DNA from: a virus
Lineage: Duplodnaviria; Heunggongvirae; Uroviricota; Caudoviricetes
Direction: 5' to 3' (one strand)
DNA length: 23,108 nt
IMG/VR virus record: IMGVR_UViG_2944808559_000001
Coordinates: 1 to 23,108 of that record
The first letter of the stretch is position 1. Each line of letters begins with the position of its first letter. Shown here piece after piece: positions 7,030 through 23,108 of this stretch. Below the pieces are notes generated by a model. It worked only from the letters and a program-made list of their open reading frames with translations. It searched no databases and was not told the origin of the DNA. The position numbers were made by a program, and so were the translations under genes.

Positions 7030-7303
7030 GGAGTCACCTCTCGTGGGGGTTGGAGGTTGAGCCATTGGGCCACGGTCAGCGACAGCGCGGCCTCGGGCAC
7101 GTGGATCGGGAGGACGGCGGGCACGAGCAGCACGCCGTCCTGGCACGGGAACACCGTGCCGACGACGGGGTCAGACAAGGCAGCTCGTCAGCCCCGCGCG
7201 AGCTGGATGAGCGCGATCACCGCGCCGGCCACGGCGACCAGGACCGCGTGTAGGTGGCGGTAGCGAGCTTCGCGCCTCGCTGCCGCCTCGTGCTCAGGTT
7301 CAT
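7026..7303 (-). pseudogene. Small membrane-protein gene apparently broken by a frame switch and a TGA (or two very small genes)
   Basis: ATG 7303 (ATGA overlap) reads MNLSTRRQRGAKLATATYT. The hydrophobic AVLVAVAGAVIALIQLARG continues in the -1 frame to TGA 7188. The same frame reopens (TTG 7178, 50 codons) and its stop overlaps the endolysin start. Confidence 0.45.
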
Positions 7304-7650
7304 GGTTTCCCTTCTGCTGGCTGCTGCTCGGTGCCGGTACGGTGCTGCTCCAGGTGGGCGGCCAGGCCGTCCTCCACACGGCGTACACCGTCCTCGACGC
7401 GGGTGATCGCGTCCCGCAGGCTGGTGCCGTGGTTGGGGCGAAGCTCGGCCTCGATCGCGGCGACCCGCTCGGGGAACCCCGGCCGGTACGGCACGCCTGG
7501 CCGGGCCTCCTCGCCCAGCCAGTCGTCCAAGAAGTGGCTGAGGCGACGCAGCCTGCGCACCAGCAGCGACAGCGCCTTCCACACCAGCGCAACCCCGCCG
7601 CCGACGATCGTCACGACCACGAAGACGTCGACCCAGTAGATGCCGGTCAC
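7300..7650 (-). CDS. Phage membrane protein with one TM segment and a coiled coil (lysis-associated, 116 aa)
   Basis: GTGA overlap with the upstream gene. N-terminal TM segment, then FLDDWLGE..RPG..ERVAAIEAELRPNHGTSLRDAI, typical of actinophage lysis-cassette membrane proteins. Confidence 0.8.
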   Translation of the reverse strand: MTGIYWVDVFVVVTIVGGGVALVWKALSLLVRRLRRLSHFLDDWLGEEARPGVPYRPGFPERVAAIEAELRPNHGTSLRDAITRVEDGVRRVEDGLAAHLEQHRTGTEQQPAEGKP

Positions 7651-8327
7651 ACTGCCTCCTCGACGGGCGAGACGGCGGCGGCGCTCAGGAACGTCAGCGG
7701 CGGCTTCATCGAAAAATGCGGCTCCACGATGCGCGCGAGGTTCTCGCGCCCCCACTCGATCTGCATCCGCTTCGCCGCCACCCGCACAGGGTCGATGCGA
7801 GCAGCCCGGATGGGGTCTAACGGATCAGCCGGCGCGACACGGGCCGAGCCGACGAACTCGAGCGCGCCCTGCCGGTCGGGGAGCGGCGCGGGCTCCACCA
7901 CGAAGCGGTGCGCCTTGACCAGGCGGATGCGCTCCAGGTGGGCGGCCAGCCGGTCAGCGTCCGACACCCCAGGTGTCCAGCACGTTGGCAGGCCCCGGCA
8001 CGCCTCCAGGATCTTGGCCTCCCCTCGATCGGCGCTGGTCGGCGGGAGATCAGGGTTCGGGATGCCGAGCTCGTGCAGGACGACGTCGCACAAGGTGTCG
8101 AGGTCGTCGGGGTCGATGCCGTACGCGGCCGACCGCCACTCGAAAATCCCGTGCGGCATCACCATCACGCCGGAGCCACCTGCAGGATTCGTCATCCACA
8201 CGCCCCACATCGGCTCCGCGCCCGGCGTGCTGGCGTCGATCTCGACGAACCCACCGTCCGGACGCCTGGCGATCGCCGCGGCCGAGTAGCCGAGCTCGGC
8301 GTCCCACACCTGCATGACCTGCGGCAC
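7647..8327 (-). CDS. Tail-tip partner protein 2 (hypothetical, possible assembly chaperone; 226 aa)
   Basis: TAAGGAG-N7-GTG at 8327. Shares FExR..xG....D......L.E and ADPL..(I/L)R...RIDPVRVA motifs with 11288-11755. Confidence 0.7.
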   Translation of the reverse strand: MPQVMQVWDAELGYSAAAIARRPDGGFVEIDASTPGAEPMWGVWMTNPAGGSGVMVMPHGIFEWRSAAYGIDPDDLDTLCDVVLHELGIPNPDLPPTSADRGEAKILEACRGLPTCWTPGVSDADRLAAHLERIRLVKAHRFVVEPAPLPDRQGALEFVGSARVAPADPLDPIRAARIDPVRVAAKRMQIEWGRENLARIVEPHFSMKPPLTFLSAAAVSPVEEAV

Positions 8328-8338
8328 GTACGTTCTCC

Positions 8339-11107
8339 TTAGTGGCGGTGGGCCCAGAAGTAGATGGCGAAACTCGTCGCGTTGGCCAGGTTGACCTGGA
8401 AACCTTCCGTGGTGGACGCCGTCAGCGCCCACGCCTTGGGCGTGTAGGTGTTGCCGAAGGCGTCCGGGCCCCCGCTGCCGCCGTCGCGCAGGGTCACGAC
8501 GGGGCCCATGTTGGTGGCCATCGGCGTCAAGTTGCCGGGCGGCCCGTACCGGTAGCTGGCCCAATGCGGCGTCGAACCGCCGCCGATGCTGAAGCTGCCG
8601 GCGGCGAAGGCGTCGTACGGCGAGGTCTCGTTGGCGTCCCAGACGCGGCCGCGGATAAAGAACCGGCCGCTCGAGTTCAGGAAGATGTAGGTTTCGGAGT
8701 TCGATGAGCCGGTCGAGTAGCCGAACTGGGCGTAGTCGTCAGCGATGTCCAGGCCGCCACCCCGCTGGCTGCCGTTGCTGTTCTGCATGCCGAGCCGGAT
8801 CAGGGTGGAGTCCACCTGGAGCTCGGCGCGCTGCGAGCTGCTGGTGTTCGTGGTGATGTAGATGGCGGCCTCGCCGCCGGAGTCCTGCGAGTAGATGCGC
8901 GAGTAGTTGCTGCCGCCTGCGGGGTAGAACCGCAGGTCAAGCGTGCTGGAGTCCAGCACGAAGCGACGACCGGTCGGCGAGCTGCGCACGATGCTGCCGG
9001 TGATCGTCTTACCGTTGATCGCGTCCGCCGCGATCGTCTGTGCCGTGACGGAGCCTGCGGCCAGCTTGTCGGCCGTGATCGCCGCGGCGGCCAGGTGGCC
9101 GGTCTGGATGGCCCCGGCCTCGATCTTGTCGGCGGTGATGGAGTTGGCGTTCAGGTGGCCGGCGTTGATGGCGAGCGCCTGGATTAGGGTGCCGGTGATC
9201 GTGTTCGCGGTGATCTTGGCGTTGGCCGGGATGCTGCCGTCGATCACGTGCTCGGCCCCGTCGATCACCTGCCCGATCAGGTCGGTGTCGACCAGCGGCA
9301 CCACGGCCGCGACGACCCGAGCCGACTCCCCACTGACGTTGCCCGACCTGTCGAGCGCGACCAGCCAGAACTCCCTGTCGCTGTTGTACGGCAGGCCGGG
9401 CACCACGGCGGTCCCAGCCCGCTCCAGCCACTCCACCTGCGTGCCGTCGTCCTCGGCATCGAGCGGGTCGCGCATCATGACGAGCGCTCGGTGGAAGTCG
9501 GTCGGCATGCCGGTGCCCGAGCTGGTCAGGCCGTCCCAGGTGACGCGCACGATCCCGAGCCGGGAGTCGACGACCGGCGTGGACGGGCTCGGCGGCGGCC
9601 CCTCATCGTCCGGGATCGTCAGGACCGGCGACGTCGCGAGCAGTCCCTTGGTGCCCTGGTTGGTGGCCCGCACCCCGAACCGCCACTGCGTCTTCGGCTC
9701 CAGCGGACTGTAGGAGATGCTGGTGCCGTCGGTGTGGCCGAGCACCCGTTCCGCGCCCGTGCCCGGCGGCGTCTGCCCGATCAGCTCGTACCCGTCGACG
9801 GACAGGGCGACGCCGTTCTCGTCCGTCGAGACGGGCAGCCATGACACGGTGATCAGGCCGTGGGCGTAGCCCTCCGCGTCGAGGTACGCCTGCGGGTCCA
9901 CGATCAGGCCGGTCGGCGCGGCCGGTACCCGGTCCTTGCTGTCGGGAGCCGGTTCGCCGCCGTTACCGCCCTCGGTCACCCCGCCCGACAGGATGCCGTT
10001 GGCCCGGCGCGAGATCCTGATGTCGCGTTCGAGGAACCGGTCGTTCAACACCAGGTTGCCGCCGATCACGCCTTCGGCGTCCACCGTCAGCGTGATCTGC
10101 CGGATCCGCAGCCCCTGCATGACCGCCTGGTCACCAGGGGCGCGCACGGTGTCGCCCACCCGGTAGTCCCGCAGCGGCAGGAATCGGGCCGCGTAGGGCG
10201 TGATCTGCCGGGTGAGCTGCACCCGCTCCCCCGACGCCCGGTCGAGCGCGTACCGCGCGAGCATCCGCGCGGTGCCCTCGTCCTTCACCCCGCCCTGCGA
10301 TTGGTACGTCTCCCACCGCCCCCATGGCCGCACCGCCACTGGGTTGGTCACCTCGACGGACAGGCCGTCCTCGCCGGTGATGAGGATGGCCGAGGCCGCG
10401 TCCTCGAACGTCGCCTCGTCCGGAGCCTGTTCGATGTCCCGGCCGAGACGCAGCTCGACGGGCGCGGGCCCGGACCCGAACTGGCGGCCGAGGGTGGTGT
10501 TCTCGTTGAAGATTTGCAGCGTGCGGCCTTGTATCTGCCAGTCGCAGACGCCCTGCTCAGCGAGGTTGATCAGCACAGCGAGCAGGTCCGTGCCGGGGTC
10601 GAGGCCGAGTGTCAGCGTCGCCGCCCACGGCTGGCCCGCGGAGTCCTCGAACGCGTCGAAGTCGTAGTCGAGGCCGGGCAGCGTACCGCGGCTGCGCGCC
10701 TCGTCGATCATCTGCGACACGATGTCGCCGACAGTGGTGGCCGGGAACTGGCGCTTGCCGTCGATCATGCCGATCGACGGGTACAGCACGAGCTTGCGGA
10801 GCTGCCAGGCGTAGCCCGGCAGATCGTAGGAGCGGGTCAGCGCGTGGTCGGCGTTGTCGCCGGACCGCTTGATCCGCAGATACCGGCCGTTGGCGGGCTC
10901 CACCCAGGTGCCGCCGGCCGACCACTCCACCGCGACCTCGCACGGGGAGGCCAGCCAGGTCGCGCCGGCCGCGTGCCCGGAGTACGTCAGTCGGAGGCTC
11001 GGCGTGTCATTCAGCGGCATCGCCGCCTCGAATCCGAGGTGCTGCCCGAGCACGCCGAGACGCGCCCCGTTCGGGGCGTAGGCCACGAGCCGCAGGCCGT
11101 ACCGCAT
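8339..11107 (-). CDS. Tail-tip protein 2 (Tal/hub-like N-domain, FN3-like domains, fibre repeats, divergent C-terminus)
   Basis: Paralogue of 11755-14502. Contains PAAPTGL and PPPSPSTP FN3-like starts and ITADKIEAG/ITADKLAAG repeats. The start is 11107 (matches the paralogue N-terminus) or 11134. Confidence 0.88.
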   Translation of the reverse strand: MRYGLRLVAYAPNGARLGVLGQHLGFEAAMPLNDTPSLRLTYSGHAAGATWLASPCEVAVEWSAGGTWVEPANGRYLRIKRSGDNADHALTRSYDLPGYAWQLRKLVLYPSIGMIDGKRQFPATTVGDIVSQMIDEARSRGTLPGLDYDFDAFEDSAGQPWAATLTLGLDPGTDLLAVLINLAEQGVCDWQIQGRTLQIFNENTTLGRQFGSGPAPVELRLGRDIEQAPDEATFEDAASAILITGEDGLSVEVTNPVAVRPWGRWETYQSQGGVKDEGTARMLARYALDRASGERVQLTRQITPYAARFLPLRDYRVGDTVRAPGDQAVMQGLRIRQITLTVDAEGVIGGNLVLNDRFLERDIRISRRANGILSGGVTEGGNGGEPAPDSKDRVPAAPTGLIVDPQAYLDAEGYAHGLITVSWLPVSTDENGVALSVDGYELIGQTPPGTGAERVLGHTDGTSISYSPLEPKTQWRFGVRATNQGTKGLLATSPVLTIPDDEGPPPSPSTPVVDSRLGIVRVTWDGLTSSGTGMPTDFHRALVMMRDPLDAEDDGTQVEWLERAGTAVVPGLPYNSDREFWLVALDRSGNVSGESARVVAAVVPLVDTDLIGQVIDGAEHVIDGSIPANAKITANTITGTLIQALAINAGHLNANSITADKIEAGAIQTGHLAAAAITADKLAAGSVTAQTIAADAINGKTITGSIVRSSPTGRRFVLDSSTLDLRFYPAGGSNYSRIYSQDSGGEAAIYITTNTSSSQRAELQVDSTLIRLGMQNSNGSQRGGGLDIADDYAQFGYSTGSSNSETYIFLNSSGRFFIRGRVWDANETSPYDAFAAGSFSIGGGSTPHWASYRYGPPGNLTPMATNMGPVVTLRDGGSGGPDAFGNTYTPKAWALTASTTEGFQVNLANATSFAIYFWAHRH

Positions 11108-11111
11108 CGGC

Positions 11112-11291
11112 TCACCCGGAACGATCACCTGCATGCGCTGTCCCCTCTCGCTGCTTGAGCTGGGCCTGGAGCTGGTCGACCGCGACGGCCAGGACCGCGT
11201 TCTCGTACGTCAGCTCATCGATGCGTCTGCGCAGGAACGCCACCACGGCGTTCGGGTCCACGTGCAGGTCTTCATGCGAGTCGTCGGTCAT
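11112..11291 (-). CDS. Small coiled-coil phage protein (59 aa)
   Basis: ATGA overlap with the upstream gene; MTDDSHEDLHVDPNAVVAFLRRRIDELTYENAVLAVAVDQLQAQLKQ; GC-rich third codon positions. Confidence 0.7.
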   Translation of the reverse strand: MTDDSHEDLHVDPNAVVAFLRRRIDELTYENAVLAVAVDQLQAQLKQREGTAHAGDRSG

Positions 11292-11755
11292 GCGCTCCCC
11301 AGCAGATGCCGGTCGATCGCCAGCCGGATGGTGGCCACCCGCACCGGGTCGATACGCACGCGATCGCGCAGCGCCTGCAGCGGATCGGCCGCAGCTTGCG
11401 CCGACCGGCCGGAAGCGGCGGCGGGCGCATCGGTGAGGACCTGGCCGTACTGCTCCCGGCAGGCCGCGATCTGCCCCTGCAGCCGGGCCCGCGCCGAGGC
11501 CGCGTCCCCCTCCAGCCGGACCTGCGCATCCGGGTCGCCGTCGGCGTGCATCCACGACAGCAGCGGCTCGTACAGCAGCGCCTCGATCACCTCGTCGAGG
11601 GACGTCAGCCCGTGCTCGGCCATGCGGTGCTCGAAGGCTTCCTTCGGGAAGCTGGCGGCGACCGTGCCCCCGTCGCCGTCGACCGGCTCGTACAGGAACG
11701 TCCACGCGTCCGGTCCTTCTTCGACGTGGGTGATCCGCCAGGTACGCACGCCCAT
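11288..11755 (-). CDS. Tail-tip partner protein 1 (hypothetical, possible assembly chaperone; 155 aa)
   Basis: TGATG overlap with the tail-tip 1 stop (MGVRTWRITH...); paralogous to 7647-8327. Confidence 0.75.
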   Translation of the reverse strand: MGVRTWRITHVEEGPDAWTFLYEPVDGDGGTVAASFPKEAFEHRMAEHGLTSLDEVIEALLYEPLLSWMHADGDPDAQVRLEGDAASARARLQGQIAACREQYGQVLTDAPAAASGRSAQAAADPLQALRDRVRIDPVRVATIRLAIDRHLLGSA

Positions 11756-14502
11756 CACGCTCCATGTTGTCGCCAGGCCCACACGTACAGCAGCGTCGTG
11801 AAGTTGGTGGGCGTCGAGGTCTCGTGTGATCGCAGGGTGAACCCGGTCGTGCTGGGCGAGGTGACATGAAGCACCAGGCGAGCCGGGATCGGGTTGTCGG
11901 CGGTGATCAGCACGCGCGGCGCGGACTGGAGCGTCACGATGAACGAGACGAAGTGCGATGCCGCCGCCGTGGTGAGGTTGCGGGAGAACATGACCAGGCC
12001 CGCAGCGGACTCGTAGTTGAAGGTGCCCCGGAACGCCGTGTAGCCCGTGGCGCTTCCGGCGCCGCCGTTGTTGAACAGCCACCGGTTCAGGCGGCCCGCG
12101 GTGTCGTTGTAGCCGACCTCGAGCTGGTTCGGCTGCGCGAACATGTAGCCGCCGCCGGCGAGCCCATCCGCGGTCTGCACCATGTGCATGCGCCACTCGT
12201 CGCCGCGTTGGATCACCTCCGAGCGGCGCGTGCCGTCCGTGCTCGTGCCGGAGTACAGCCGGATCGCGGCCTCGGCGTCGGTCCAGATGCGCGCGTAGTT
12301 CGTGCCGGTCCCCGGCATGAACCTGATCTCCGGATCAGCCGCGCCCGCAGGGTTGACGATGATCCGGCGGCCGGTCACGCCCGTCGCGAGCTGCCCGACG
12401 ATGCTGACCGCGCCGGACGTCGACGAGATGGACACGGTCTGCACAGAGGAGGCGTTGTACGCCTCCAGACCGCTGGCGTTCAGCTCCACCCGGGCCCCGG
12501 CCGGAGTGCCAGCCACGATCCGGGTTGAGAGCGTCAGGACGGCTTCCAGCTTCGCCGCGGTGACCTGCTCGGCGGCGATGTGCCCGGCGAGGATCTGTCC
12601 GGCGGCGATCTTCGCTGACGTGATCGCGTTGGCCACGATCGCGCCCGTGGTGATCGACTCGTCGGCGGCGTCGCCCTGGACGAGCTGCACCGCGGCGATC
12701 GTCGCCGTCGCGCTCCGCGCCGAGGCATTCCCCGAGCGGTCGACGGCGGTGAACGAGAACTCCCTGTCGGCGCCGTACGGCAGGCCGGGCACGACGAGCG
12801 ACCCGGCCGCGTCGAGATACCCGATCTCGGTCCAGCCCGGCGCGAGCGGGTCCTGCATCCAGACCAGGACATGCAGCAGGTCGGACGGCATCGGTACCGC
12901 CCCGACGCCCAGCCCATCCCACGTCACGTGCACGACACCGAGCCGGGACTCCAGCGCCGGGGCGGTCGGCACCGGCGGCGCGTCCGTGTCGTCCGGGATG
13001 GTGACGGCCACGGACGACGAGAACGGCCCGCGCTGGCCGAGGTTCACCGCCCGGACCTTGAACTGGTACTGCTGCCCGACCACCAGCGGACTGAAGGTGG
13101 CGTTGGTGTCGGCGGCCTCCGTCGCCGTGATCAGGAACCACGGCGCGCCTTCCTCGTTGATGCGTGCGAACAGCTCGTAGCCGCCGATGACGAGCGCCAC
13201 GCCGGCCACGTCGGTGGTGACCGCGCCCCACGTGGCGGTCACCTGCCCGCGCGGCAGGCCGTGCTCGTCGAGGTAGGCGAGCGGGTTCACGATCAGACCG
13301 GCGGGTGAGGCCGGGGTGCGCGGAGCCGGTGACTCCGGCGCCGGTCTTGCTCCGGATCCGCCCTCGGCGGTGGAGCCGCCGACGATGCCGGCCGTACGGC
13401 GGGACAGCCGCAGGTCCCGCTCCAGCAGCCGATCGTTCAACACGACGTTGCCGCCGAGGACGCCGTTCTTGTCGCGGGTCACGGTGAGCTGCCGGACCCG
13501 CATGCTCTCCATCGCGCCGCCCGCAGAAGGGGCGAGGACGCGATCCCCTGGCCGGTAGTCGCGCCAGGGAAGCCAGCGCGCGGTGTACGGGGTGATCTGG
13601 CGGGTCCGCTGGATGCGCTCGCGCCCGGAGCGCAGCAGCACCGCTTCGGCGAGCAGCTGCGCGGTCCCCGGGTCGGAGACGCCGCCCTGCCCGATGTAGG
13701 TCTCCCACCGCCCCCACGGCGCGGATGCGCTGCCGTTCGTGTACGACGCGCGGAACCCGTCTTCGCCGATCACGAGGGCCGCGCTGGCGAGGTCCTCGAA
13801 CGTGCCCACGTCCGGGGCGGCGACGACGTCGCGGCCGAACCGCAGATCCACCGGCGCGTCCCCCGCCGCCAGGTCCCGCGCGAGCTCGGTGTCGGCGTTG
13901 AACACCTGCAGCGTCCGCCCCTGCATGCGGAAGTCGCAGACGCCCTGCTCGGCGAGGTTGATGAGCGTGGTGAGCGCGTCGAGGCCGGGACGGTAGTAGA
14001 TCGTCAAGATCTTCGCCCACGGCTCGCTAGCTGAATCGTGTGTCGGAGTGAAGTCCCAGTCGAGCGCGGGCAGCGCGCCGCGCGCCTGCCCCTCCTGCAG
14101 GAACGTCTGCAGGATCGCCCCCGGCATCGCGGACAGGAACGCCCGCTTGCCGTCGACCAGCGGAGCAGCGCCCGGGTAGAGGATCACCTTGCGCAGCATC
14201 CACACGTACCCGGGCAGCTCGTACATGGCCAGCCCGGTCTCGTCCACCTGGTCGGCCCGACGCCGGATCAGCAAGAACCGGCCGTCGCTCGGCTCCGTCC
14301 ACGCCTGTCCGTCTTCCGACCATTCGACGGCGACCTCGACCGGCCCGTCGAGGAGCTCCGCGTTCAGGGCCCGCGTACTGTAGGACAGCTTCAGCGCGGG
14401 CACGTCATTTAGCGGGCATGCGACGTCGACCATCAGTGGTTGAGGGACAACGCCAAGACGGACTCCGAACGGGGCATAGACCACTAAGCGTAGTTCAGTC
14501 AC
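11755..14502 (-). CDS. Tail-tip protein 1 (Tal/hub-like N-domain, FN3-like domains, fibre repeats, divergent C-terminus; 915 aa)
   Basis: Lies downstream of Dit. Shares LINLAEQGVCD, PWGRWETY, TRQITPY and LNDR.LERD with its paralogue. Contains ITSAKIAAG/VTAAKLEA repeats. Confidence 0.9.
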   Translation of the reverse strand: MTELRLVVYAPFGVRLGVVPQPLMVDVACPLNDVPALKLSYSTRALNAELLDGPVEVAVEWSEDGQAWTEPSDGRFLLIRRRADQVDETGLAMYELPGYVWMLRKVILYPGAAPLVDGKRAFLSAMPGAILQTFLQEGQARGALPALDWDFTPTHDSASEPWAKILTIYYRPGLDALTTLINLAEQGVCDFRMQGRTLQVFNADTELARDLAAGDAPVDLRFGRDVVAAPDVGTFEDLASAALVIGEDGFRASYTNGSASAPWGRWETYIGQGGVSDPGTAQLLAEAVLLRSGRERIQRTRQITPYTARWLPWRDYRPGDRVLAPSAGGAMESMRVRQLTVTRDKNGVLGGNVVLNDRLLERDLRLSRRTAGIVGGSTAEGGSGARPAPESPAPRTPASPAGLIVNPLAYLDEHGLPRGQVTATWGAVTTDVAGVALVIGGYELFARINEEGAPWFLITATEAADTNATFSPLVVGQQYQFKVRAVNLGQRGPFSSSVAVTIPDDTDAPPVPTAPALESRLGVVHVTWDGLGVGAVPMPSDLLHVLVWMQDPLAPGWTEIGYLDAAGSLVVPGLPYGADREFSFTAVDRSGNASARSATATIAAVQLVQGDAADESITTGAIVANAITSAKIAAGQILAGHIAAEQVTAAKLEAVLTLSTRIVAGTPAGARVELNASGLEAYNASSVQTVSISSTSGAVSIVGQLATGVTGRRIIVNPAGAADPEIRFMPGTGTNYARIWTDAEAAIRLYSGTSTDGTRRSEVIQRGDEWRMHMVQTADGLAGGGYMFAQPNQLEVGYNDTAGRLNRWLFNNGGAGSATGYTAFRGTFNYESAAGLVMFSRNLTTAAASHFVSFIVTLQSAPRVLITADNPIPARLVLHVTSPSTTGFTLRSHETSTPTNFTTLLYVWAWRQHGA

Positions 14503-14686
14503 ATCAAGCCCTGTTTTGTTGATTGGCCACTTTTGTCACAAAGGACTCGCTCGGGCGTCGCTACTGCGCACAGAACGTATCGCCGAAACCCCTCGCAAAG
14601 AAGTCTGATGCTGGCTATCTTGGCCGTCGTGCAGATCGACCAGAGGATGGCCTTGGCGGCACAAGAGATCAAGGTGACGAAGAGGT

Positions 14687-15091
14687 ATGAGCGTGCGAAT
14701 AAGGGAAAGCAATCGGGACTTGCCCAGTCCACTGCTGATTGCCGTATCGGAGCTCATGATTCTCCGCGCCCTAGAGCTTGCAGGGAAGCGAATACCACCA
14801 CGTCGAGGCAACCGCTCGCTGCGAGCGATCTACCAAGACGTCCCCCCATGGGAAATTCACACCATCTTTCCAGCACGGGCTGATGAGTTGGATAAGCTCC
14901 TAGCTAACGCCTGGACGCTTCCGCTTAATATCGGAGTTCCCGCATCGCTAGTGGAGACATTAGACGTGCACGCCAGGACGCTCTTGGTCGCGGGACTCGC
15001 ATTCGCCCGAGGCGACCTGTGCCTGACACTCTCGCAAATGTCTTTTGATGAAGCCGAACTGCCATGGCTCTTGCCTCGACCACTGGCCTAG
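14687..15091 (+). CDS. Hypothetical protein (134 aa) in an opposite-strand insert
   Basis: ATG preceded by purine-rich AAGGTGA..GAAGAGGT; protein-like helical sequence ELMILRALELAGKRI; AT-richer codons including TTA at 14960. Confidence 0.6.
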   Translation: MSVRIRESNRDLPSPLLIAVSELMILRALELAGKRIPPRRGNRSLRAIYQDVPPWEIHTIFPARADELDKLLANAWTLPLNIGVPASLVETLDVHARTLLVAGLAFARGDLCLTLSQMSFDEAELPWLLPRPLA

Positions 15092-15201
15092 TTGGCTGAT
15101 CAGAAGCTTCCCGCCCCATGACGCTACGGCTCTCCTCAACAAAAGTTAAGGCTCTCGCGAATGCCGCATAGGGCCTAAACGGCAGGACATAAGAGGGAAC
15201 T

Positions 15202-16164
15202 ATGATCGCACCCCACGCCCCCACCTGCGTTCTTTGTGGAGCCCCGCATGCTCGGGCAGAACACGTCTGGACTCGCCGACTTGCCCAGTATCAGCAGAGG
15301 CTCTCCCCGGGGGCCGGATTTACCGCTGACCTGATCATGGCGGACCTTGGGCGTCGACCACTCCGAAGCGCTAACGGACAGCGTTGGACACATCCAACAT
15401 TCCCACACGTGACCGTGCCCGCATGCGAGGACTGCAATAAATGGTTGAACGATAACTTCGAGCGCCCTGCACATGCGGCAATCACAAAAACACTCGACGA
15501 ATGTGACGTTCCTCTAACCTATGCTGAAACGACAGCGTTGGCGCGATGGCTAGGAAAAACATCCCTTTTGCTTCAACACCAAGAAGCCAAAGGCATTGTT
15601 CCCGGCGACGAGGATCGCCGCCAAAGAGACTGCTGGGAAGTGGCTACAAGACTTGTTCGAGAGCTACGGAGGGGAAGTGAACTGCCCGACGACCTTTCTA
15701 TCTGGATGGCGCGGGCCGATGACACGGACGGAAACGCCGAGCTTTCGACTTCGCCGCGAATCTACCTACCCACAACGAGCGGCACTGGTGGCCTCGGCGG
15801 AGAAAGTGTCGCCACCTCATTCGGCATAGGCATGCGCAGCGGGGCAATGCTATGCGTCCAGGTGGCTTACCACCCTCTCGTTGATATAGCGCATCCTTTT
15901 GAGGGTTCCCGCTTTGCGATACGCCTGTGGCCTGACCCTCCAGCGAAATTTAACATTCGGAATCTGCCCAGACTATCCACGGTGGGGCGGCGGCAATTCA
16001 ACAGCGTCTTTGTCCGTGGAGCTGGGCACATTACCCTTCCCCTTCCAGACGAACGTGTGACCTGCCGCCCGGATGTGGACCCTCTCATGGATTTCTGGAC
16101 TCATTGGGGCCGCTCCATGCCAGTAGATGAACAATCACCCGAGACTGGAAGCGATCATGAATGA
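15202..16164 (+). CDS. HNH-like zinc-finger protein with an uncharacterised C-terminal domain (320 aa)
   Basis: AAGAGGGAACT-ATG start. CxxC..AEHV and CxxCN..LN..FE motifs of the treble-clef HNH class; visibly lower GC than the flanking phage genes. Confidence 0.7.
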   Translation: MIAPHAPTCVLCGAPHARAEHVWTRRLAQYQQRLSPGAGFTADLIMADLGRRPLRSANGQRWTHPTFPHVTVPACEDCNKWLNDNFERPAHAAITKTLDECDVPLTYAETTALARWLGKTSLLLQHQEAKGIVPGDEDRRQRDCWEVATRLVRELRRGSELPDDLSIWMARADDTDGNAELSTSPRIYLPTTSGTGGLGGESVATSFGIGMRSGAMLCVQVAYHPLVDIAHPFEGSRFAIRLWPDPPAKFNIRNLPRLSTVGRRQFNSVFVRGAGHITLPLPDERVTCRPDVDPLMDFWTHWGRSMPVDEQSPETGSDHE

Positions 16165-16282
16165 CATGCGGTGAACACCCTACTTGGTGTTCGTGGCACT
16201 CACATGAAGCCGAGAAGATCGGACGACTGGCAAGTTCTCGTGAAGAAGCAACTCGCCTGCAGGCAATGCTAAGTCTGCGCTA

Positions 16283-17152
16283 TCACTGGAAAGAACGGCG
16301 GGCCCGGATCTCCAGCTTGGACGCCGCCGTGGTGGAGGTGGCCGCCGCGGTGACGAGCACCGCGCGGGAGTGCGGGTCGCCGACCGCCACGGACGGGGTG
16401 AGGTGCAGCCACCGGAACGCCGAGCCAGGGCCGGTTGCGGCAATCTGGCCAGTCACGTCCGTCCCTGCGGTCATGTCCCACGTGTCGGTCGTCACCAGGC
16501 GGGCCCGCATCTGCCCGCAGTCGATGAGCAGCCGCTGGCCAGCGGACAGCCCGGACGAGCGGGAGACGGTGCCTCCGGTGGCCACGTCGGTCACGGCCGG
16601 GTTCACAGCCGGGCCGGTGACGCGCACCACCGCGTCGGTGATCGGAGCGGTTGAGCCCGCGAGCGTGGTCACCAGCTGGTCGGCGGCGTTGACGGCCCCG
16701 GACCAGGTGGTGTCGAACAAGTCGCGCCAGTACACGCCCGGGATGCGCATCACGGCCGTCAGCCGGGCCATGGCCGCGTCGGTGTTGATCTCCGGCTCGC
16801 TGATCCCGTCGAGGATGACGTCGGCCTGCCGGACGACGGTCCCCGCGACGAAGGTGAGCTTCATCAGCCGGTGCTTGACGCCGAGCACCGCGCCGAGCGC
16901 TTCGAGGTTGTGCTCCATCTGCTCGTACCCGCCCGGCGCCCCCGAGGGGGTGCGGCCGTACACGGTCAGCACGAGCGGCATCGTCGTCGTCTCATGATCG
17001 AGCCCGAGGATGGGCAGCTCCCCCGCCCGGCCGGGCACCTTGACCTCGACCTGTCGCAGGCCCGGAAGAGGCCTGCGCTTGGTGCCCTTCTTGAGTCGCC
17101 AGCACCCGGCAGGATGGTCCAGGGCGACCCCGTCGAGCAGGTACGTCGGCAT
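16283..17152 (-). CDS. Distal tail protein (Dit)-like (289 aa)
   Basis: Directly after the TMP; size, beta-rich sequence, VPGRAG N-terminal motif and basic RARR C-terminus are typical of siphovirus Dit. Confidence 0.8.
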   Translation of the reverse strand: MPTYLLDGVALDHPAGCWRLKKGTKRRPLPGLRQVEVKVPGRAGELPILGLDHETTTMPLVLTVYGRTPSGAPGGYEQMEHNLEALGAVLGVKHRLMKLTFVAGTVVRQADVILDGISEPEINTDAAMARLTAVMRIPGVYWRDLFDTTWSGAVNAADQLVTTLAGSTAPITDAVVRVTGPAVNPAVTDVATGGTVSRSSGLSAGQRLLIDCGQMRARLVTTDTWDMTAGTDVTGQIAATGPGSAFRWLHLTPSVAVGDPHSRAVLVTAAATSTTAASKLEIRARRSFQ

Positions 17153-17317
17153 CTACAGAACCCCCATCAGATCTAGCGAGGGAACTGCCGGGTTTCTCCG
17201 GCAGGGGAATCGCTTCCTCGATATGGTTTCTTTGTTCGAAACGGGTAGGGCTTGTCCGTCGCCTACCTCAACCGAGGGAAGCGAGGAGCCGCTCCCTTCA
17301 GGGATCGGAGGAGTCAC
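17153..17317. other. 165-nt highly structured spacer between TMP-B and Dit
   Basis: Stems 17185-17204, 17210-17220/17273-17284, 17226-17242 and 17244-17267. It ends in CTGATGGGGGTTCTGTAG, which echoes the TMP-B 3' end. Confidence 0.55.
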
Positions 17318-19603
17318 CTACAGCACGCCCAGCATCCCGGCATAGGCGAGGCCGCGGTTGACGGTCTCGCTGGTGGTCTCGGCGGCCGGGTTGATCGTGG
17401 TGACGTGGATGTTGACCCCGGCCGTCCGGTTCGGGCCCACGCCGCCGGTGACGATGCGGCCGGTCGAGCCGATATGCGCGGCGAGCTCCGGCCGGAACGA
17501 CGCCTCCAAGTCCCCGGCGATGCGTGAGGCGGTAGCCAGCACCGTACGGGCCGAGGTTTGCATGCCCTGCGCCATGCCGAGCATCGTGAACTGGCCGATC
17601 TCGGCGAACACCGTCGACGGGGAAGCGATACCGAGGGCCTGCCGCACCCAGTCCGGCATGATCCCCTGGAAGAAGTTGTAGATCATGTCGCGGAACCACG
17701 CTCCGGCCGCGACGATCCCGTTCCACAGCCCGACCAGCAGCTGCCAGCCGAGGTTGTCGACGGCGACGAGGAAGTCGAGGATGCCGCGCCCGGCCGTGGC
17801 CAGCGCGCCGATGAAGTCGCCGGTCAGCAGCAACGCGACCGCCCGGACCAGCGTGATCAGCGGCGGCAGCAGCGCGGTGACGAGCTGCAGCAGCGGCGGC
17901 AGCACCGGCAGGATCGCCGGGAGCAGCTGAGCGAAGGAGCTGATCAGCGCGAGCAGCTGCGGCGACAGGTCCACCAGGGCCTGCAGGAGGACCTGGCCGA
18001 TCTGACCGGCGACCTGCGCGATCAGCGGCAGCAGCGGCCCGAGCACCGGGACCAGCCCGGTCACGAACTGCGCGACCAGCAACGCGAGCTGCGGCAGCAG
18101 CGGCGCGATGGCCGGGATGAGCGTGTTGACGACCAGGACGGCGAGCGCGCCCAGCAGCGGAAGAACCGGCTGGATGGCCAGCAACGCGAGCGAGAACGCG
18201 GAGACCAGCAGGTTCAGCGACGGCAGGACGGCTTGCACGCCGGCCGCGAGGACCTGCGCGACGAGGGAGGCCAGCTGCCCGATGACGGGCAGGAGCGGCG
18301 CCGCCGCGACCATGATGGCCGAGATGGCCTGCGCGATCGGCACCATCGCGGGCGCGACCGCCGCGGCGGCCACGCCCAGCGCGGCGAAGACTGCCGAGAT
18401 GCCGGGGAACAGCGCGGCCAGCGCGGGCACCACCGCCTGGATGGCGGCGGTGAGGATCGGGCCGAGCTGCACCGCCAGCGCCGCCACCAGCGGCGCGAGC
18501 ATGCCGACCCCTTCGGCGACGGCGACGAGAGCCGGAGCGAGCGCGGACGCCATCTGGCCGAGCGACGCGAACACCGACGTGAGGGCGCGCTGCCCGGCCA
18601 TGCTGTTCACCCAGGCGTTGACCCGGTCGAGGATCGTGCCGAGCACCCCGAGCGCGTCCCCTCCGGCGGCACGCACCGCGTCGAACACGCCGGAGAAGAT
18701 CTGCCACACGTCCGCAGCGAGTGAGCCGAGCTGACGCAGGACGAGGACGGCGTCCTGCATCCAGCCGAGCGCCCGGCCGGATTCGGCGGCCGCGGTGAGG
18801 AAGTCCCCGAACCGGACCGCGAGCAGCGCCAGCTCGGGGGCAAGCCCGGCCGCGAACTGGGCGCCTACGGTGGTGATGCGGGTCAGGCCGGTCAGCACCG
18901 GATCGATCGCGACCGCCAGGGCGTCGACGGCGAAGCGCAGCGACGCGAACACCGTGGCGATCGCCGCCACAGCGGTGTCGGAGCGAGCGAACTCGGCGAC
19001 CCGCGCCGCAGCTCGGCCGAGTGCGTCCGCGACCGAGCTCATGCCGATCGCGACGGGCCCCAGCAGCACGTCGGCCAGCGCGGTGAGCTGGCCGAGCAGG
19101 AGGGTGAACAAGCTGTCTTGGACGAGGTTCCGCAGGCCCAGCAGCACCGGCCGCAGGGCACGCAGCTCCCTAGCTGCGCTCTGAGCGGCCCCAGACAGGC
19201 CCTTGATCGCTTCCTCGAACTTCTGTTCGTCTTCCCCCAGCGCGGCCGTGAACGCGTCCTGGACCCCGTACAGGGCCACCGACAGGGTCGCGATTCCGGC
19301 TGCTCCGAGCGCGGCCACTCCGGGCAGAGCCGCGACGAGCCCGACAGCGGGAGCGAGCGCCGCCCCCAGCGAGACGACGCCGTTGGCCAGCGCGCCGGCC
19401 GCGGCCGACATCAGCGCCATCCGGGCGGCGGTGGTGACGATCGCGGCGCCCATCTGCACGACCGAGGCGGTGACCTGGTTGGTCGAGCCGCGGAAGGAGA
19501 TGGAGGCCCGCTGGGTGGTGTCGAGCGCCCGGGTGAGCCGCGTGGCGAACGACTGATCTCGCAGGTCCAGGGTGATGAACAGCTCGCCCACGTTGATCGC
19601 CAC
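17318..19603 (-). CDS. Tape measure protein B (761 aa)
   Basis: Start GTG 19603 after CAGGAGGT gives (M)AINVGELFITLDLR. Ala/Leu-rich helical Pro-periodic repeats, LGIASPSTVFAEIG motif, and position before Dit. Confidence 0.92.
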   Translation of the reverse strand: MAINVGELFITLDLRDQSFATRLTRALDTTQRASISFRGSTNQVTASVVQMGAAIVTTAARMALMSAAAGALANGVVSLGAALAPAVGLVAALPGVAALGAAGIATLSVALYGVQDAFTAALGEDEQKFEEAIKGLSGAAQSAARELRALRPVLLGLRNLVQDSLFTLLLGQLTALADVLLGPVAIGMSSVADALGRAAARVAEFARSDTAVAAIATVFASLRFAVDALAVAIDPVLTGLTRITTVGAQFAAGLAPELALLAVRFGDFLTAAAESGRALGWMQDAVLVLRQLGSLAADVWQIFSGVFDAVRAAGGDALGVLGTILDRVNAWVNSMAGQRALTSVFASLGQMASALAPALVAVAEGVGMLAPLVAALAVQLGPILTAAIQAVVPALAALFPGISAVFAALGVAAAAVAPAMVPIAQAISAIMVAAAPLLPVIGQLASLVAQVLAAGVQAVLPSLNLLVSAFSLALLAIQPVLPLLGALAVLVVNTLIPAIAPLLPQLALLVAQFVTGLVPVLGPLLPLIAQVAGQIGQVLLQALVDLSPQLLALISSFAQLLPAILPVLPPLLQLVTALLPPLITLVRAVALLLTGDFIGALATAGRGILDFLVAVDNLGWQLLVGLWNGIVAAGAWFRDMIYNFFQGIMPDWVRQALGIASPSTVFAEIGQFTMLGMAQGMQTSARTVLATASRIAGDLEASFRPELAAHIGSTGRIVTGGVGPNRTAGVNIHVTTINPAAETTSETVNRGLAYAGMLGVL

Positions 19604-19650
19604 CGTCTCCACCTCCTGTGGGGTCCCGAATGAGAGGTGGAGACGGCGAC
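19599..19650 (-). promoter_or_regulatory. Hairpin that sequesters the TMP-B ribosome-binding site and start codon
   Basis: Perfect 13-bp inverted repeat CCGTCTCCACCTC (19603-19615) / GAGGTGGAGACGG (19634-19646), extendable to 17 bp with two G-U pairs on the minus-strand RNA. Confidence 0.65.
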
Positions 19651-19677
19651 AACGACCAGGGGGCCCGGGGGCGGGCG

Positions 19678-22600
19678 TCAGACCAGGCCGAGCACCGAGG
19701 CGTACTGCAGCCCCTTGTTGACCGTCTTGCTGGTGGGTTCGGCCTGGGGGTAGTTGTTCGTCACGTTGACCACGGTCTGGTTACCGGCCCGGCCGCCGAC
19801 CATCCCGGGGGTGAGCGTCGCGGCCGGCTTCGGCGTGAACACCTTGGTCAACTGGCCCGCGACCCCAGCCGCCTTGGCGAGCATCTTCGGCGCGGCCTCG
19901 ACGATGCCGTTCTCCAGACCGGACATGGTGAACGCGCCGATCTCGGCGAAGATCTGCGATGGCGACTTGATCTTCAGTGACTTCTTGATCTGGTTGACGA
20001 GCGCGTTGGCGATGTCGCGCATCGCCGCTTCGATCTGCTTCTTCTGCGAGACGATTCCGGCCAGGAAGCCCTTGCCCGCGTTTTTCCCGGCGTCGAACAT
20101 CGCGTCGGCGGCGGCCTTCCCGGCATCCTTCGCAGCCTTCTCGATCATCCCGTAGGTGCTGTTGATCGACTTGAAGGTGGACGAGTCCGCCTGCAGGATC
20201 GCCTGCCCCAGCTCGTTACCGGCCTCAGGCCCGGCCTCGATGATCTGGCTCAGCAGGCCCTTCGACAGGCCGCGCGCGGCCAGCTTCTTGATCGTGTTGG
20301 CCCAGGACTTGATCAGCGCGAGCCGCGACTTCAGCCCTTCCTGGATGCCTTCCGCGCTGGCGGGGTTCTGCTCGTTGAACCCCATGTTCGACAGGTTCGC
20401 GAACTGGCGGGTCTGGTCGCCGATCTGCTTGGCGTACGCCATCGCGTCAGCGATCGTCTTGACGATCGCCTCTCGCTCCTTGGCGAGCTTGGCCAGCTCG
20501 GTGTTGCCGGACCGGATCGACTCGACCAGGTGGTCCTTCACCCCGGCCGTGATCCTGCCGGACTGGAAGGCGTTCACCACGGCGTCGACCATCCGGCCGG
20601 CCGTGTCCTTGATCTTGGACTCTTCTCCTTGAAGGCCGAGCACCCAGCCCTTGGCCGTGTCGGAGCCGACCGCCGCCATCACCTTCGACGGCGAGCTGAT
20701 GCCGAGGAGCCGCTTGATCCAGGAGATGAAGCCGGAGAACAGGTTGCCGACGGAGGAGGTGAAGGAGTTCCAGGCGTTGACGAACCCCTGCTTGATGCCG
20801 TTGACGAGGTCCGCGCCGAGAGTCCACAACTTTTTGAAGGCGGCGGTGATGGTGTTGCCGAACTGGGTGACCCCGTTCTTGATCGTCTCCCACGCGCCTT
20901 GGAAGTCGCCGGTGAGGACCTTGGCCAGGGCGGTGACGATGCTGATGACCAGCGGAATCACCGACGAGCCGAGCTGGATCAGCGGCGGCAGGACCGGCGT
21001 GATCGCTGAGACGATCTTGGTGAAGATGGTCGCGAGGTTGAGCAGGATCGGCGACAGCGCCGTCACGAGCTGCACCAGCGGCGGCAGCAGCGCCGTGGCG
21101 AGCTGCATGATCGGCGGCAGGATCGGCAGGATCGCCGTGATCAGCTGACCGAAGATCGTCGCGAGCTGCGTGAAGATCGGCGACAGCTGCATGATCGCCT
21201 GCTGGATGGCCTGTCCGAACAGGACGGCCATCTGCGAGATCGGCGGCAGCAGCGGCGTGATCGCGCCGACGAGGATCGTGATCGCCTGCACCAGGACGCC
21301 GCCGAGCGCGGCGGCGATCTGCCCCACCACGGGGATCAGCGGAGTGATCGCCGGGACGAGCCCGGTGATGAGCTGCGCGGCGAGCTGCGCGATCGGCGGG
21401 ACGAGCGGCAGCAGCGCGATGACGAGCTGCCCGAACGCCTGCGCGATCTGACCGATCACCGGCCGAAGCTGCGTCAGGACCGGAGCGAGCGACGTGGTGA
21501 CGGTCTGCCCGACGCGCACCAGGACCGGCGCCAGCGCGGTCGCGAAGGTCGCGACGAGCTGCAGAACCGGCGGCAGCAGCGGGATCAGCGCCGCCGCGAG
21601 CTGCGCGAACGACCCCATCAGGCTGCCGATGCTCGGGCCGAGCTGCGTCAGGACCGGCGCGAGCTGCGCGGACAGCGTCTGCGCGATCATCGTCAGCCCG
21701 GACATGAGCGGCCCCGCTAGCGATCCCGCTAGCCCGACAACCGCGCCGAGCAGCGGCCCCATCGCCTGCAGGAGACCACCGAGACCGGTCATCAGCGTGG
21801 CCAGCAGGCCGGAATTCTCCGACAGCGCGGCCGAGATCGGAGCCATGAATCCGGCGAGCTGCCCGCCGAACTGGCCCAGCGACCCGGCGACCTGCGACAG
21901 CATCGGCACCACGGCCGCGACGACACCCTGGATGGCGGGCAGCATCGGCCCGAGGAAATCGCCAAGACCGGCCGTGAACTGCCCGATCAGCGGCGCGATC
22001 TGAGCGAACATGCCCTGCAGGGCGGGCGCGATCTGCGTCGAGAACATCGTCTTCAGCGACCCGGCCGCCTGCGCGAGCGGCCCCTCCAGCACGGACGCGG
22101 CCTGCGCCAGGTCCGCCTGGACGGACTTCTTCAGGTCGGCGAAGGCGGCCTTGACCTTGGCCGACTCCATCGCGGCCTTGATGCCGATGACCGCGATCCC
22201 GGCCGTGATCCCGGCGAACACCCCGGCCAGCACACCGCCAGCTCCGACGCCGGCGGCGCCCATCCCGACGAGCGCTGTGCCGGCCTTGTTGGCCATGCCG
22301 AGGACCATCGGCGTGGAGGTGAGCGTCGCGGACCCGAACTGGGTCAGGCCAGTCGTCATGGTGGTGAGCGCGCCGCGCACGGTCAGCGACGAGATACGCA
22401 CCAGCCCGGACGTGGCCTGCCACGCAGTGGAGATGCGCCGCAGGTTCGTCACCACCTGCGACAGCTGGTTGTAGGCGGAGGTGACGCGGTTACGCATCTC
22501 CTCGCTGTCAGCCCACAGCCCGCGCATCCCGGCCGCGACGCCGGCGAACGCGGCCGCGGTGCGGGCGCGCATGGCGTCGACGCCCCGGCCGATCAGGCTC

Positions 22601-23108
22601 ATGGCCGCGCTGACGACGAGCCCGACAGGGGAGAACGCGAGCAGCGACGCCCGCGCGGCCGACATCTCCCCCGTGATGACCTTGCGTACGACGATCACGG
22701 CGGCGGCGAGCAGCGCCAGGACCGCGATCACCTTTAGGAACGAACTGGTGGAGCCGGACTCGAACAGGCGGGCCGCGAGTCCCATCGACCCCATCGCGGT
22801 GCCGAACACGCTGGAGACCGCGGACATCTTCGAGATCGCGCCGGACAGGCCGCCGAGACTGGTCAGCAGGCCGCGCACGACCTCGCCGAACCGGGTCCCG
22901 GACAGGACGGCGTTGAGCGCCATCTCCGCGAGATGCAGCGCCGCCTCCTTGGCCGCGGAGGCGATCGCCTGCCCCATCGCGGTCCCGGCGGCCCCCATCG
23001 CGTCCATGACGGCCGCGAACACCGGGCTCGCGGCGCGGGCCTTGGCGATCGCCGAAGACAGGCCGCTGGCCACCTGCTCCCGCAACTCCAGGCTGATGAA
23101 CAGCTCGC
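19678..23108 (-). CDS. Tape measure protein A (>1142 aa; 5' end just outside the window)
   Basis: The frame is open to the window edge and reads ELFISLELREQVA, matching the TMP-B N-terminus. Pro-periodic helical repeats, LGISSPSKV and LKIKSPSQIFAEIG motifs, and a C-terminus homologous to TMP-B. Confidence 0.92.
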   Translation of the reverse strand, partial: ELFISLELREQVASGLSSAIAKARAASPVFAAVMDAMGAAGTAMGQAIASAAKEAALHLAEMALNAVLSGTRFGEVVRGLLTSLGGLSGAISKMSAVSSVFGTAMGSMGLAARLFESGSTSSFLKVIAVLALLAAAVIVVRKVITGEMSAARASLLAFSPVGLVVSAAMSLIGRGVDAMRARTAAAFAGVAAGMRGLWADSEEMRNRVTSAYNQLSQVVTNLRRISTAWQATSGLVRISSLTVRGALTTMTTGLTQFGSATLTSTPMVLGMANKAGTALVGMGAAGVGAGGVLAGVFAGITAGIAVIGIKAAMESAKVKAAFADLKKSVQADLAQAASVLEGPLAQAAGSLKTMFSTQIAPALQGMFAQIAPLIGQFTAGLGDFLGPMLPAIQGVVAAVVPMLSQVAGSLGQFGGQLAGFMAPISAALSENSGLLATLMTGLGGLLQAMGPLLGAVVGLAGSLAGPLMSGLTMIAQTLSAQLAPVLTQLGPSIGSLMGSFAQLAAALIPLLPPVLQLVATFATALAPVLVRVGQTVTTSLAPVLTQLRPVIGQIAQAFGQLVIALLPLVPPIAQLAAQLITGLVPAITPLIPVVGQIAAALGGVLVQAITILVGAITPLLPPISQMAVLFGQAIQQAIMQLSPIFTQLATIFGQLITAILPILPPIMQLATALLPPLVQLVTALSPILLNLATIFTKIVSAITPVLPPLIQLGSSVIPLVISIVTALAKVLTGDFQGAWETIKNGVTQFGNTITAAFKKLWTLGADLVNGIKQGFVNAWNSFTSSVGNLFSGFISWIKRLLGISSPSKVMAAVGSDTAKGWVLGLQGEESKIKDTAGRMVDAVVNAFQSGRITAGVKDHLVESIRSGNTELAKLAKEREAIVKTIADAMAYAKQIGDQTRQFANLSNMGFNEQNPASAEGIQEGLKSRLALIKSWANTIKKLAARGLSKGLLSQIIEAGPEAGNELGQAILQADSSTFKSINSTYGMIEKAAKDAGKAAADAMFDAGKNAGKGFLAGIVSQKKQIEAAMRDIANALVNQIKKSLKIKSPSQIFAEIGAFTMSGLENGIVEAAPKMLAKAAGVAGQLTKVFTPKPAATLTPGMVGGRAGNQTVVNVTNNYPQAEPTSKTVNKGLQYASVLGLV

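Follow-up and report, generated by a model that had tools for sequence, protein, structure and literature searches.

Siphoviruses of the canonical type, such as lambda (gpH/gpJ), T5 (pb2/pb3), SPP1 and 80alpha, encode one tape measure protein (TMP) and one tail tip protein (Tal). Both are textbook single-copy parts. The TMP acts as the ruler that sets tail length. The tip hub initiates assembly, seals the tube and in many cases also attaches to the host. Analysis of a stretch of 23,108 nucleotides, called the window here and corresponding to bases 1-23108 of the 88.7-kb IMG/VR provirus record IMGVR_UViG_2944808559_000001 (rated 97% complete), revealed that a temperate siphovirus of Nonomuraea (Streptosporangiaceae) encodes both parts twice in its tail module. 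The module resembles the canonical one in its gene order (chaperone, TMP, distal tail protein Dit, Tal), in the PHROG matches of its TMPs and in the gp27-like hub of its Tal. It differs in that TMP and Tal are each present as two full-length, diverged paralogues (TMP-A and TMP-B; Tal1 and Tal2), whereas Dit, the tube protein and the chaperone are single.

Two binding proteins encoded side by side are known from phages with dual receptor binding, such as K1-5/SP6 with their dual tailspikes and the staphylococcal phage phiSA012, in which they widen host recognition without switching machinery. In those phages, the binding proteins are spikes or side fibres attached through adaptors, whereas in the present locus it is the central hub that is doubled, with a single docking site under Dit. 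We know of no TMP duplication in these phages. Programmed tropism switching is achieved by the invertible fibre segments of Mu (Gin) and P1 (Cin) and by the diversity-generating retroelement (DGR) of Bordetella phage BPP-1. The possible outcome, a population mixed in receptor specificity, would be alike here, but both versions would be expressed together. Searching positions 7000-23108 revealed no long inverted repeats and no template/variable repeat pair near the Tals, only paralogous stretches of 71-78% identity, and no reverse transcriptase or invertase was found among the large open reading frames (ORFs) checked in the record. The locus thus lacks the marks of an invertase or DGR tropism switch. 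An earlier reading of the window, made from the letters alone (the sequence-only reading), had supposed that neither device is present, which is borne out at the repeat level.

The closest documented parallel is the Tal dimorphism of TP901-1 and Tuc2009. According to a passage of PMC11409707 (citing Stockdale et al. 2013), proteolysis of Tal at a glycine-rich site gives rise to a mixed phage population in these phages. The likeness would lie in two Tal forms per phage, in particles suited to different host states and in a Gly-rich boundary after the structural part. As far as that passage describes them, the forms of TP901-1 and Tuc2009 come from one gene and differ in a cell-wall hydrolase domain; here, the two forms come from two genes belonging to two old clades, and have different putative heads and separate partner proteins. 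Two TMP-annotated frames also adjoin in Vibrio phage ICP1, an example of TMP genes split by introns or homing endonuclease genes; each frame there encodes half of a protein that splicing makes whole (PMC10448857). In contrast, each TMP of the present locus carries a full set of terminal motifs, the frame relation differs from locus to locus, and the gap between the two genes contains no endonuclease gene. No report of a phage with two complete TMP genes was found in the open-access literature, although absence there is not proof.

Sequence comparison shows that ruler and tip are both doubled around shared single-copy parts, that this doubling is conserved and that selection maintains it; both copies are probably functional parts of the virion. 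A lineage that stably keeps both pairs offers a natural experiment on how rulers and initiators choose each other, on whether one cell builds two tail lengths, and on wider host range or escape from entry-targeted defences without switching machinery.

Recurrence, descent and selection of the doubled genes

A self-search of the whole record revealed TMP and Tal as its only doubled genes. TerL, portal, capsid, tube, chaperone and Dit are present once each, and a second prophage or structural module in the record was rejected on this ground. All genes claimed by the sequence-only reading were found on the minus strand by ORF calling and family matches, and its arrangement of two TMPs and two Tals around one Dit is real, with one tube gene and one chaperone set. 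It had also considered that the element might supply tails to satellites or act as a tailocin. Nothing points there, and a complete head and packaging module lies upstream.

Related loci were collected by a Dit-anchored scan of IMG/VR (27 loci) and by a Dit-profile scan of prokaryotic genomes, one per species (70 loci). They were scored with hidden Markov models (HMMs) for the TMP N-terminal end, the TMP C-terminal end, Dit and the Tal hub. The census covers 65 loci anchored on Dit in actinobacterial genomes chosen as species representatives, plus the window, and loci that were not counted in any class are incomplete. Two TMPs with two Tal hubs were found in 14 loci, one TMP with two hubs in 24, and one TMP with one hub in 9. 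Two further loci have two TMPs and one hub, the hub count being incomplete at a contig end (L051) or an 8.8-kb insert (L085). The double-TMP layout is present in at least 15 related prophages besides this one of Nonomuraea. The synteny of double TMP and double Tal, for which the sequence-only reading had proposed a search, thus recurs in many independent genomes. Misassembly is excluded because the loci with both doublings include complete chromosomes (L036 and L040).

The hosts of the relatives are mostly Nonomuraea, but also include Streptosporangium, Sphaerisporangium and Planomonospora, among others; Pseudonocardiaceae and Nocardiopsis contain more distant relatives. Some Nonomuraea genomes hold several related prophages (four loci in N. 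basaltis, at least one other in N. maritima). The closest relative of the window, L036, demonstrated identities of 95% for the tube protein, 81% for TMP-A, 85% for TMP-B and 90% for Dit. In the tip genes, identity to L036 was 88% for Tal1, 86% for its partner P1, 75% for Tal2 and 49% for its partner P2. Among cultured phages, 19 records contained a Tal1 homologue, a single one in each, and 216 records contained TMP-B-like sequence, essentially at one place in each. The lone record with two TMP-B-like places, Mischief19, has a single TMP gene.

The tree of Tal proteins revealed a clean split into two clades. The Tal1-type clade contains the first-position genes, including forms that consist of the hub only, and the Tal2-type clade includes the sole Tal of single-Tal relatives. 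Since these sole Tals group with Tal2, the ancestral tip is Tal2, to which Tal1 was added as a copy long ago. In the tree of TMP end regions, the first-position TMPs form one clade with a support of 100, joined by the sole TMP of L042, and the second-position TMPs form one clade with a support of 93. Both clades have congruent subclades, and together they stand apart from most single TMPs. This pattern fits a single old duplication of the TMP that took place after the Tal had been doubled in the lineage, the copies being inherited together from then on. As shown by the trees, the Tal duplication, which took the partner gene with it, is older than the TMP duplication and widespread in the family. 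The combination of a first-position-type TMP with Tal2 only (L012/L042) was considered as a paired loss and was not retained as such, as it is one case and a single block replacement explains it equally well.

Comparison of L040/L011 with loci of another subclade (L041, L043, L048, L049, L053, L082 and L022) revealed a block of TMP-B, Dit and the Tal1 hub with 79-85% identity. The flanks of this block (32% in the TMP-A C-terminal end, 62% in the Tal2 hub) are as diverged as between any subclades. The central block looks like a unit exchanged between the two subclades. Partial Mantel analysis gave r values of 0.67 for the TMP-A C-terminus with the Tal2 hub and of 0.53 for the TMP-B C-terminus with the Tal1 hub. 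The assignment of cognate TMP-Tal pairs from this co-variation was discarded, because the pattern vanishes or reverses without L040 and L011 and one block exchange explains it.

Selection was estimated as the ratio of nonsynonymous to synonymous substitution rates (dN/dS). NG86 values between the window and L008, which are rough at such divergence and bias in third-position GC content (GC3), were 0.31 for TMP-A, 0.35 for TMP-B, 0.27 for Dit, 0.34 for the tube protein and 0.33 for the chaperone. In closer pairs, Tal1 and Tal2 gave 0.12-0.21 each. On these estimates, neither copy appears relaxed relative to its essential neighbours, and purifying selection acts on all copies. The sequence-only reading had named relaxed selection on one set, a one-off mosaic and a misassembly as outcomes that would overturn it. 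The comparisons, as far as sequences can address these outcomes, revealed none of them, nor the decay of one set.

It is very improbable that one TMP and one Tal are unused leftovers of recombination that are carried neutrally, or an artefact of assembly. Phage tail modules are mosaic, as the exchange of the block of TMP-B, Dit and Tal1 hub between two subclades illustrates, and the TMP reading frames of L010 are frameshifted. However, both TMP ORFs are intact in 16 of the 16 double-TMP loci, which come from species-representative genomes, two of them complete chromosomes. In addition, both copies have the same level of dN/dS as Dit and the tube gene, which are essential, the end motifs of the TMPs are conserved, and the clades of first and second position mirror each other.

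The two tape measures and the hairpin between them

Both TMP genes are positioned between the chaperone, with its extension ORF, and Dit. The best PHROG match of TMP-A is the tape measure family phrog_5493 (E 1e-49), that of TMP-B is the tape measure family phrog_6090 (E 3e-63), and each matches many more tape measure PHROGs. Alignment of the two proteins revealed approximately 30% identity across a repetitive core with many insertions and deletions (indels), 42% identity in the last 111 residues, and an N-terminal motif common to both. TMP-A has the N-terminal motif (VALNVGELF...) and the C-terminal motif (...NNYPQAEPTSKTVNKGLQYASVLGLV) of the family, and TMP-B keeps both, so that the end motifs of the family's single TMPs are retained twice. 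The divergence inside and likeness at the termini that had been noticed in the window are thereby given figures.

Because both end motifs are kept, each TMP looks competent as a complete ruler. This argues for a parallel and not an end-to-end use of the two proteins; serial use of the rulers is unlikely on the same evidence. Fusion of TMP-A and TMP-B by frameshift or readthrough was rejected, as the frame offset is 0, 1 or 2 depending on the locus and stop codons usually lie between the two genes. A 229-aa ORF that precedes the TMP in single-TMP relatives was considered as a relic of TMP-A and was likewise rejected, being a DNA methyltransferase. These relatives carry the methyltransferase gene as an insertion flanked by the tail chaperone and TMP genes (L013:6929-7618, L014:6929-7636).

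Ruler length in the double-TMP loci ranges from 638 to 1148 aa in the first position and from 675 to 808 aa in the second. In the window, TMP-A has 1148 aa and TMP-B 761-764 aa, a difference of approximately 390 aa. Within the subclade of the window, TMP-A alone has expanded to 1148 aa, whereas TMP-B has stayed at approximately 760 aa. The growth of TMP-A comprises an N-terminal block and a lower-GC block of approximately 240 aa that is flanked by the repeated C-motif. The latter block, at 19950-20700 of the window, is Lys/Glu-rich and lies between two copies of the C-motif 'I-x-SPS...AE-x-G'; it is missing from the TMP-A of L023. It seems that an insertion or a partial duplication lengthened the TMP-A ruler. 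With a conversion of 0.15 nm of tail length per TMP residue, the tails of this phage would measure approximately 172 nm with TMP-A and approximately 115 nm with TMP-B. Two clearly different tail lengths are predicted in the subclade of the window only. The lone expansion of TMP-A argues against an in-register heterotrimer of the two TMPs.

The gap between the two TMP genes folds as a 20-bp hairpin, with a minimum free energy of -54 kcal/mol and a z score of -3.6 against shuffled sequences. The Shine-Dalgarno (SD) sequence and the GTG start of TMP-B sit in the 3' arm of this hairpin. Nearly all other double-TMP loci have hairpins that work on a like principle, although the sequences of their arms differ. 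The median length of the helix covering the SD is 7.5 bp at the second TMP versus 5-6 bp at other TMP starts (Mann-Whitney p 0.00045, calculated with no correction for relatedness of the loci, so that the statistic is not phylogenetically independent). The probability of pairing was 0.80 versus 0.67-0.74 in controls, GC-rich leaders folding readily in general. Because the hairpin occludes its SD, TMP-B is probably made in a lower amount, or only with translation of TMP-A. Alternatively, the hairpin could serve as a U-less terminator or as an attenuator.

A second TMP might also be kept for a different benefit. TMPs are targeted directly by the host defence SNIPE (bioRxiv 10.1101/2025.11.03.685801), and a second, diverged TMP, perhaps together with the second Tal, might let some particles escape when hosts or resident prophages block entry at the level of the TMP or tip. 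Effects on tail length and on the range of receptors would then be incidental. The fast divergence of the TMP bodies between fixed ends would agree with such escape, and the several related prophages per Nonomuraea genome make exclusion between relatives plausible. No exclusion or defence gene is linked to these TMPs, however, and escape of this kind is compatible with two tail populations and not an alternative to them. As the explanation of the doubling, it is improbable.

Tip hubs, variable heads and partner proteins

Tal1 consists of a gp27-like hub (residues 1-375), a Gly-rich linker, FN3 repeats, a fibre and a C-terminal head. An AlphaFold model of residues 1-385 reached a predicted local distance difference test (pLDDT) value of 80. 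Searching with this model in Foldseek revealed the hubs of contractile injection systems, T4 gp27, Mu gp44, the Tal of the staphylococcal phage 80alpha and the tips of the mycobacteriophages Bxb1 and Douge, with E-values of 3.5e-14 to 1e-8. The predicted N-terminus of Tal1 thus has the hub fold of gp27, VgrG and Mu gp44. Since this part of the model adopts the gp27/VgrG-type fold, the Tals are true tip hubs and not side fibres. The hub of Tal2 is 55% identical to that of Tal1 and scores 618 bits with the hub HMM, a complete gp27-type hub being retained in both proteins.

Over 824 residues, Tal1 and Tal2 share 45% identity, which amounts to 44-60% across hub, FN3 repeats and stalk and to 16-33% in the last approximately 250 residues. 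Tal2 has the domain plan of Tal1 and a C-terminal head unrelated to that of Tal1; by homology, it possibly starts at the in-frame ATG at 11107. When close relatives are compared, the C-terminal 180 aa or so of Tal2 show 30-54% identity, against 75-92% in the other parts. At this distance, the Tal1 head and P1 are stable, whereas the Tal2 head is hypervariable, as is P2. The leads from an Atlas search with the Tal2 head, to tail fibres and lectin-like proteins, were all weak (score 0.89), and no lysin domain was found in the Tals by Pfam and PHROG searches.

Tal1, P1, a small ORF, Tal2 and P2 form a set of five translationally coupled genes with overlapping or abutting stop and start codons. 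The ATG of P1 overlaps the TGA stop of Tal1. The small ORF (59 aa) has an ATGA overlap with P1 and extends into the start of Tal2, and the GTG start of P2 is located 8 nt after AAGGAG, directly past the stop of Tal2. The tight coupling described for the tip modules thus extends from Tal1 to P2. The partner genes claimed alongside are real, with the bounds of P1 and the start of P2 corrected, and the 59-aa ORF was found in addition between P1 and Tal2. This ORF is helical, shares 43-94% identity among relatives and matches PHROG_9321 and PHROG_1399 (both of unknown function) with E 1e-5.

P1 and P2 align as one family (28% identity, E 5e-6), which is encoded directly after Tal in every case. 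All loci with a hub-only Tal1 lack P1. In L036, where P1 is 86% identical to that of the window, the P2 orthologue is 49% identical, P2 varying along with the Tal2 head. Because P2 varies with the Tal2 head and P1 is lost with the Tal1 head, the partners go with the heads, as a chaperone or a distal adaptor would. The predicted model of P2 (pLDDT 86) has an N-terminal beta-sheet and a helical bundle; the fold had no match in the PDB and only unnamed relatives in the AFDB. Sequence searches with P1 and P2 gave no Pfam, PHROG or PDB match, and Atlas hits were below trust level. P1 and P2 thus represent an uncharacterised family with a confident predicted fold that has no solved counterpart and that tracks the variable Tal heads.

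The sequence-only reading proposed that one phage makes two populations of tails. This is the favoured explanation of the doubling, with a nearly even chance of being correct, leaning slightly against. During lytic growth, one set of tube, chaperone and Dit would serve both rulers, and one homotrimeric ruler per tail would result in two kinds of tail per cell. Tails with TMP-B would be the minority, the hairpin over its ribosome-binding site limiting translation or coupling it to that of TMP-A. The different C-terminal heads of the Tals, each with its own partner, would provide two receptor-binding specificities, for which the 16-33% identity of the heads was counted as evidence. The most specific version of this proposal is unlikely. 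In that version, tails with ruler A form the majority and tails with ruler B the minority, the hairpin sets their ratio, and each ruler is matched to one hub-fibre protein, so that the tails differ in both length and receptor. If true, this would be a hard-wired bet-hedging on host range and entry that has been maintained for long in prophages of Streptosporangiaceae.

Several observations weigh against two separate populations, the limits of the dN/dS and hairpin figures given above among them. In 11 of the 16 double-TMP loci, the two rulers differ by just 3-12 nm or so of predicted tail length. Because they are nearly equal there, the length difference is not the selected or conserved trait; the idea of two tail lengths holds as a prediction for this window and does not extend across the system. 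Two Tals with a single TMP are commoner than the full double layout (24 versus 14 loci), so that the doubling of the tip needs no second ruler. The joint system of two rulers and two tips is present, but its doublings are separate events that are not mechanistically tied. Finally, a hub-only Tal1 of 379-407 aa, which ends at the Gly-rich linker, was found in 12 loci with a full Tal2 alongside, and it is under purifying selection (dN/dS 0.28 for L019 versus L021). As a tip that lacks a fibre would appear to be of no use to a particle that has no other, the hub-only Tal1 beside a full Tal2 favours mixed or stacked tips over separate Tal1 particles.

Such tips belong to an explanation in which all copies assemble into one type of tail. 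Beneath the single Dit, Tal1 and Tal2 would combine in one trimer or stack as rings, giving a tip with two kinds of fibre, or with one kind where Tal1 is hub-only. TMP-A and TMP-B would occupy the lumen of one tube, and the hairpin would determine their ratio. This is possible, though it remains on the doubtful side. Besides the hub-only Tal1 preserved by selection, it would accommodate the 55% identity of the Tal hubs, the translational coupling from Tal1 to P2 and the similar length of the two TMPs in most loci. The length of Dit is also unchanged (289-293 aa) between single and double forms. A precedent is provided by the tips of TP901-1 and Tuc2009, which, in the relevant passage of PMC11409707, hold Tal with and without its C-terminal domain. 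On the other hand, the TMP cores are just 30% identical with many indels, and the difference of approximately 390 aa in the subclade of the window is awkward for an in-register bundle of three chains. Moreover, a tip can be built from the Tal2 type alone, as is evident from the relatives with a single Tal, and there is no sign of concerted evolution between the Tal1 and Tal2 clades.

Gene map, cargo slot and neighbouring genes

Genes were called by GC3-guided ORF calling together with PHROG searches, and the features are listed in Table 1. The start codon of TMP-A, at 23124 of the record, lies 16 nt past the end of the window. Other large ORFs of the record belong to recombination, integration and regulation (RecT, RecE, integrase, sigma factor).

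Table 1. Features of the provirus record in and around the tail module (coordinates are those of the record).
Feature	Coordinates	Strand	Length (aa)	Basis or remark
Large terminase	35481-37010	minus		late operon
Portal	30057-31637	minus		late operon
MuF-like head protein		minus		late operon
Major capsid protein	27056-27970	minus		late operon
Connector proteins		minus		late operon
Major tail (tube) protein	23786-24253	minus		single
Tail assembly chaperone	23315-23782	minus		phrog_3860; single
Chaperone extension ORF	23148-23477			overlaps chaperone
TMP-A, first-position tape measure	19678-23124	minus	1148	PHROG tape measure
Hairpin in TMP-A/TMP-B gap	19597-19652	minus		predicted RNA fold
TMP-B, second-position tape measure	17318-19612	minus	764	PHROG tape measure
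Dit (distal tail protein)	16283-17152	minus	289	PHROG_33
Low-GC insert	14503-16282			between Dit and Tal1; ORFs on opposite strand
Tal1, first tip protein	11755-14502	minus	915	hub fold, FN3 and PHROG tail protein
P1, Tal1 partner	11288-11755	minus	155	P2 homologue
Small ORF	11112-11291	minus	59	PHROG_9321 and PHROG_1399
Tal2, second tip protein	8339-11134	minus	931	Tal1 homologue
P2, Tal2 partner	7647-8327	minus	226	GTG start
Amidase-type endolysin	6226-7146			beyond P2

Dit was identified by its similarity to phrog_33 (E 5e-7, residues 3-223) and by its position directly after the TMP, which is the same in all related loci. The gap between Dit and Tal1 is a variable cargo slot. In the window, it holds an insert of 1.8 kb with a GC content of 58-62% versus approximately 70%, and the ORFs of the insert, at 14687-15091 and 15202-16164, are encoded on the opposite strand. 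The second of them (320 aa) has N-terminal CxxC motifs and gave no match to Pfam, PHROG or PADLOC families. In relatives, the slot is of other size and content, ranging from 16 nt to 8.8 kb (L085).

Past the lysis genes, positions 1-792 of the window encode a DUF3800 protein on the minus strand. Positions 985-2421 encode a membrane-anchored protein on the plus strand, the C-terminal half of which is formed by pentapeptide-like repeats. These two genes may be prophage cargo or flanking host DNA.

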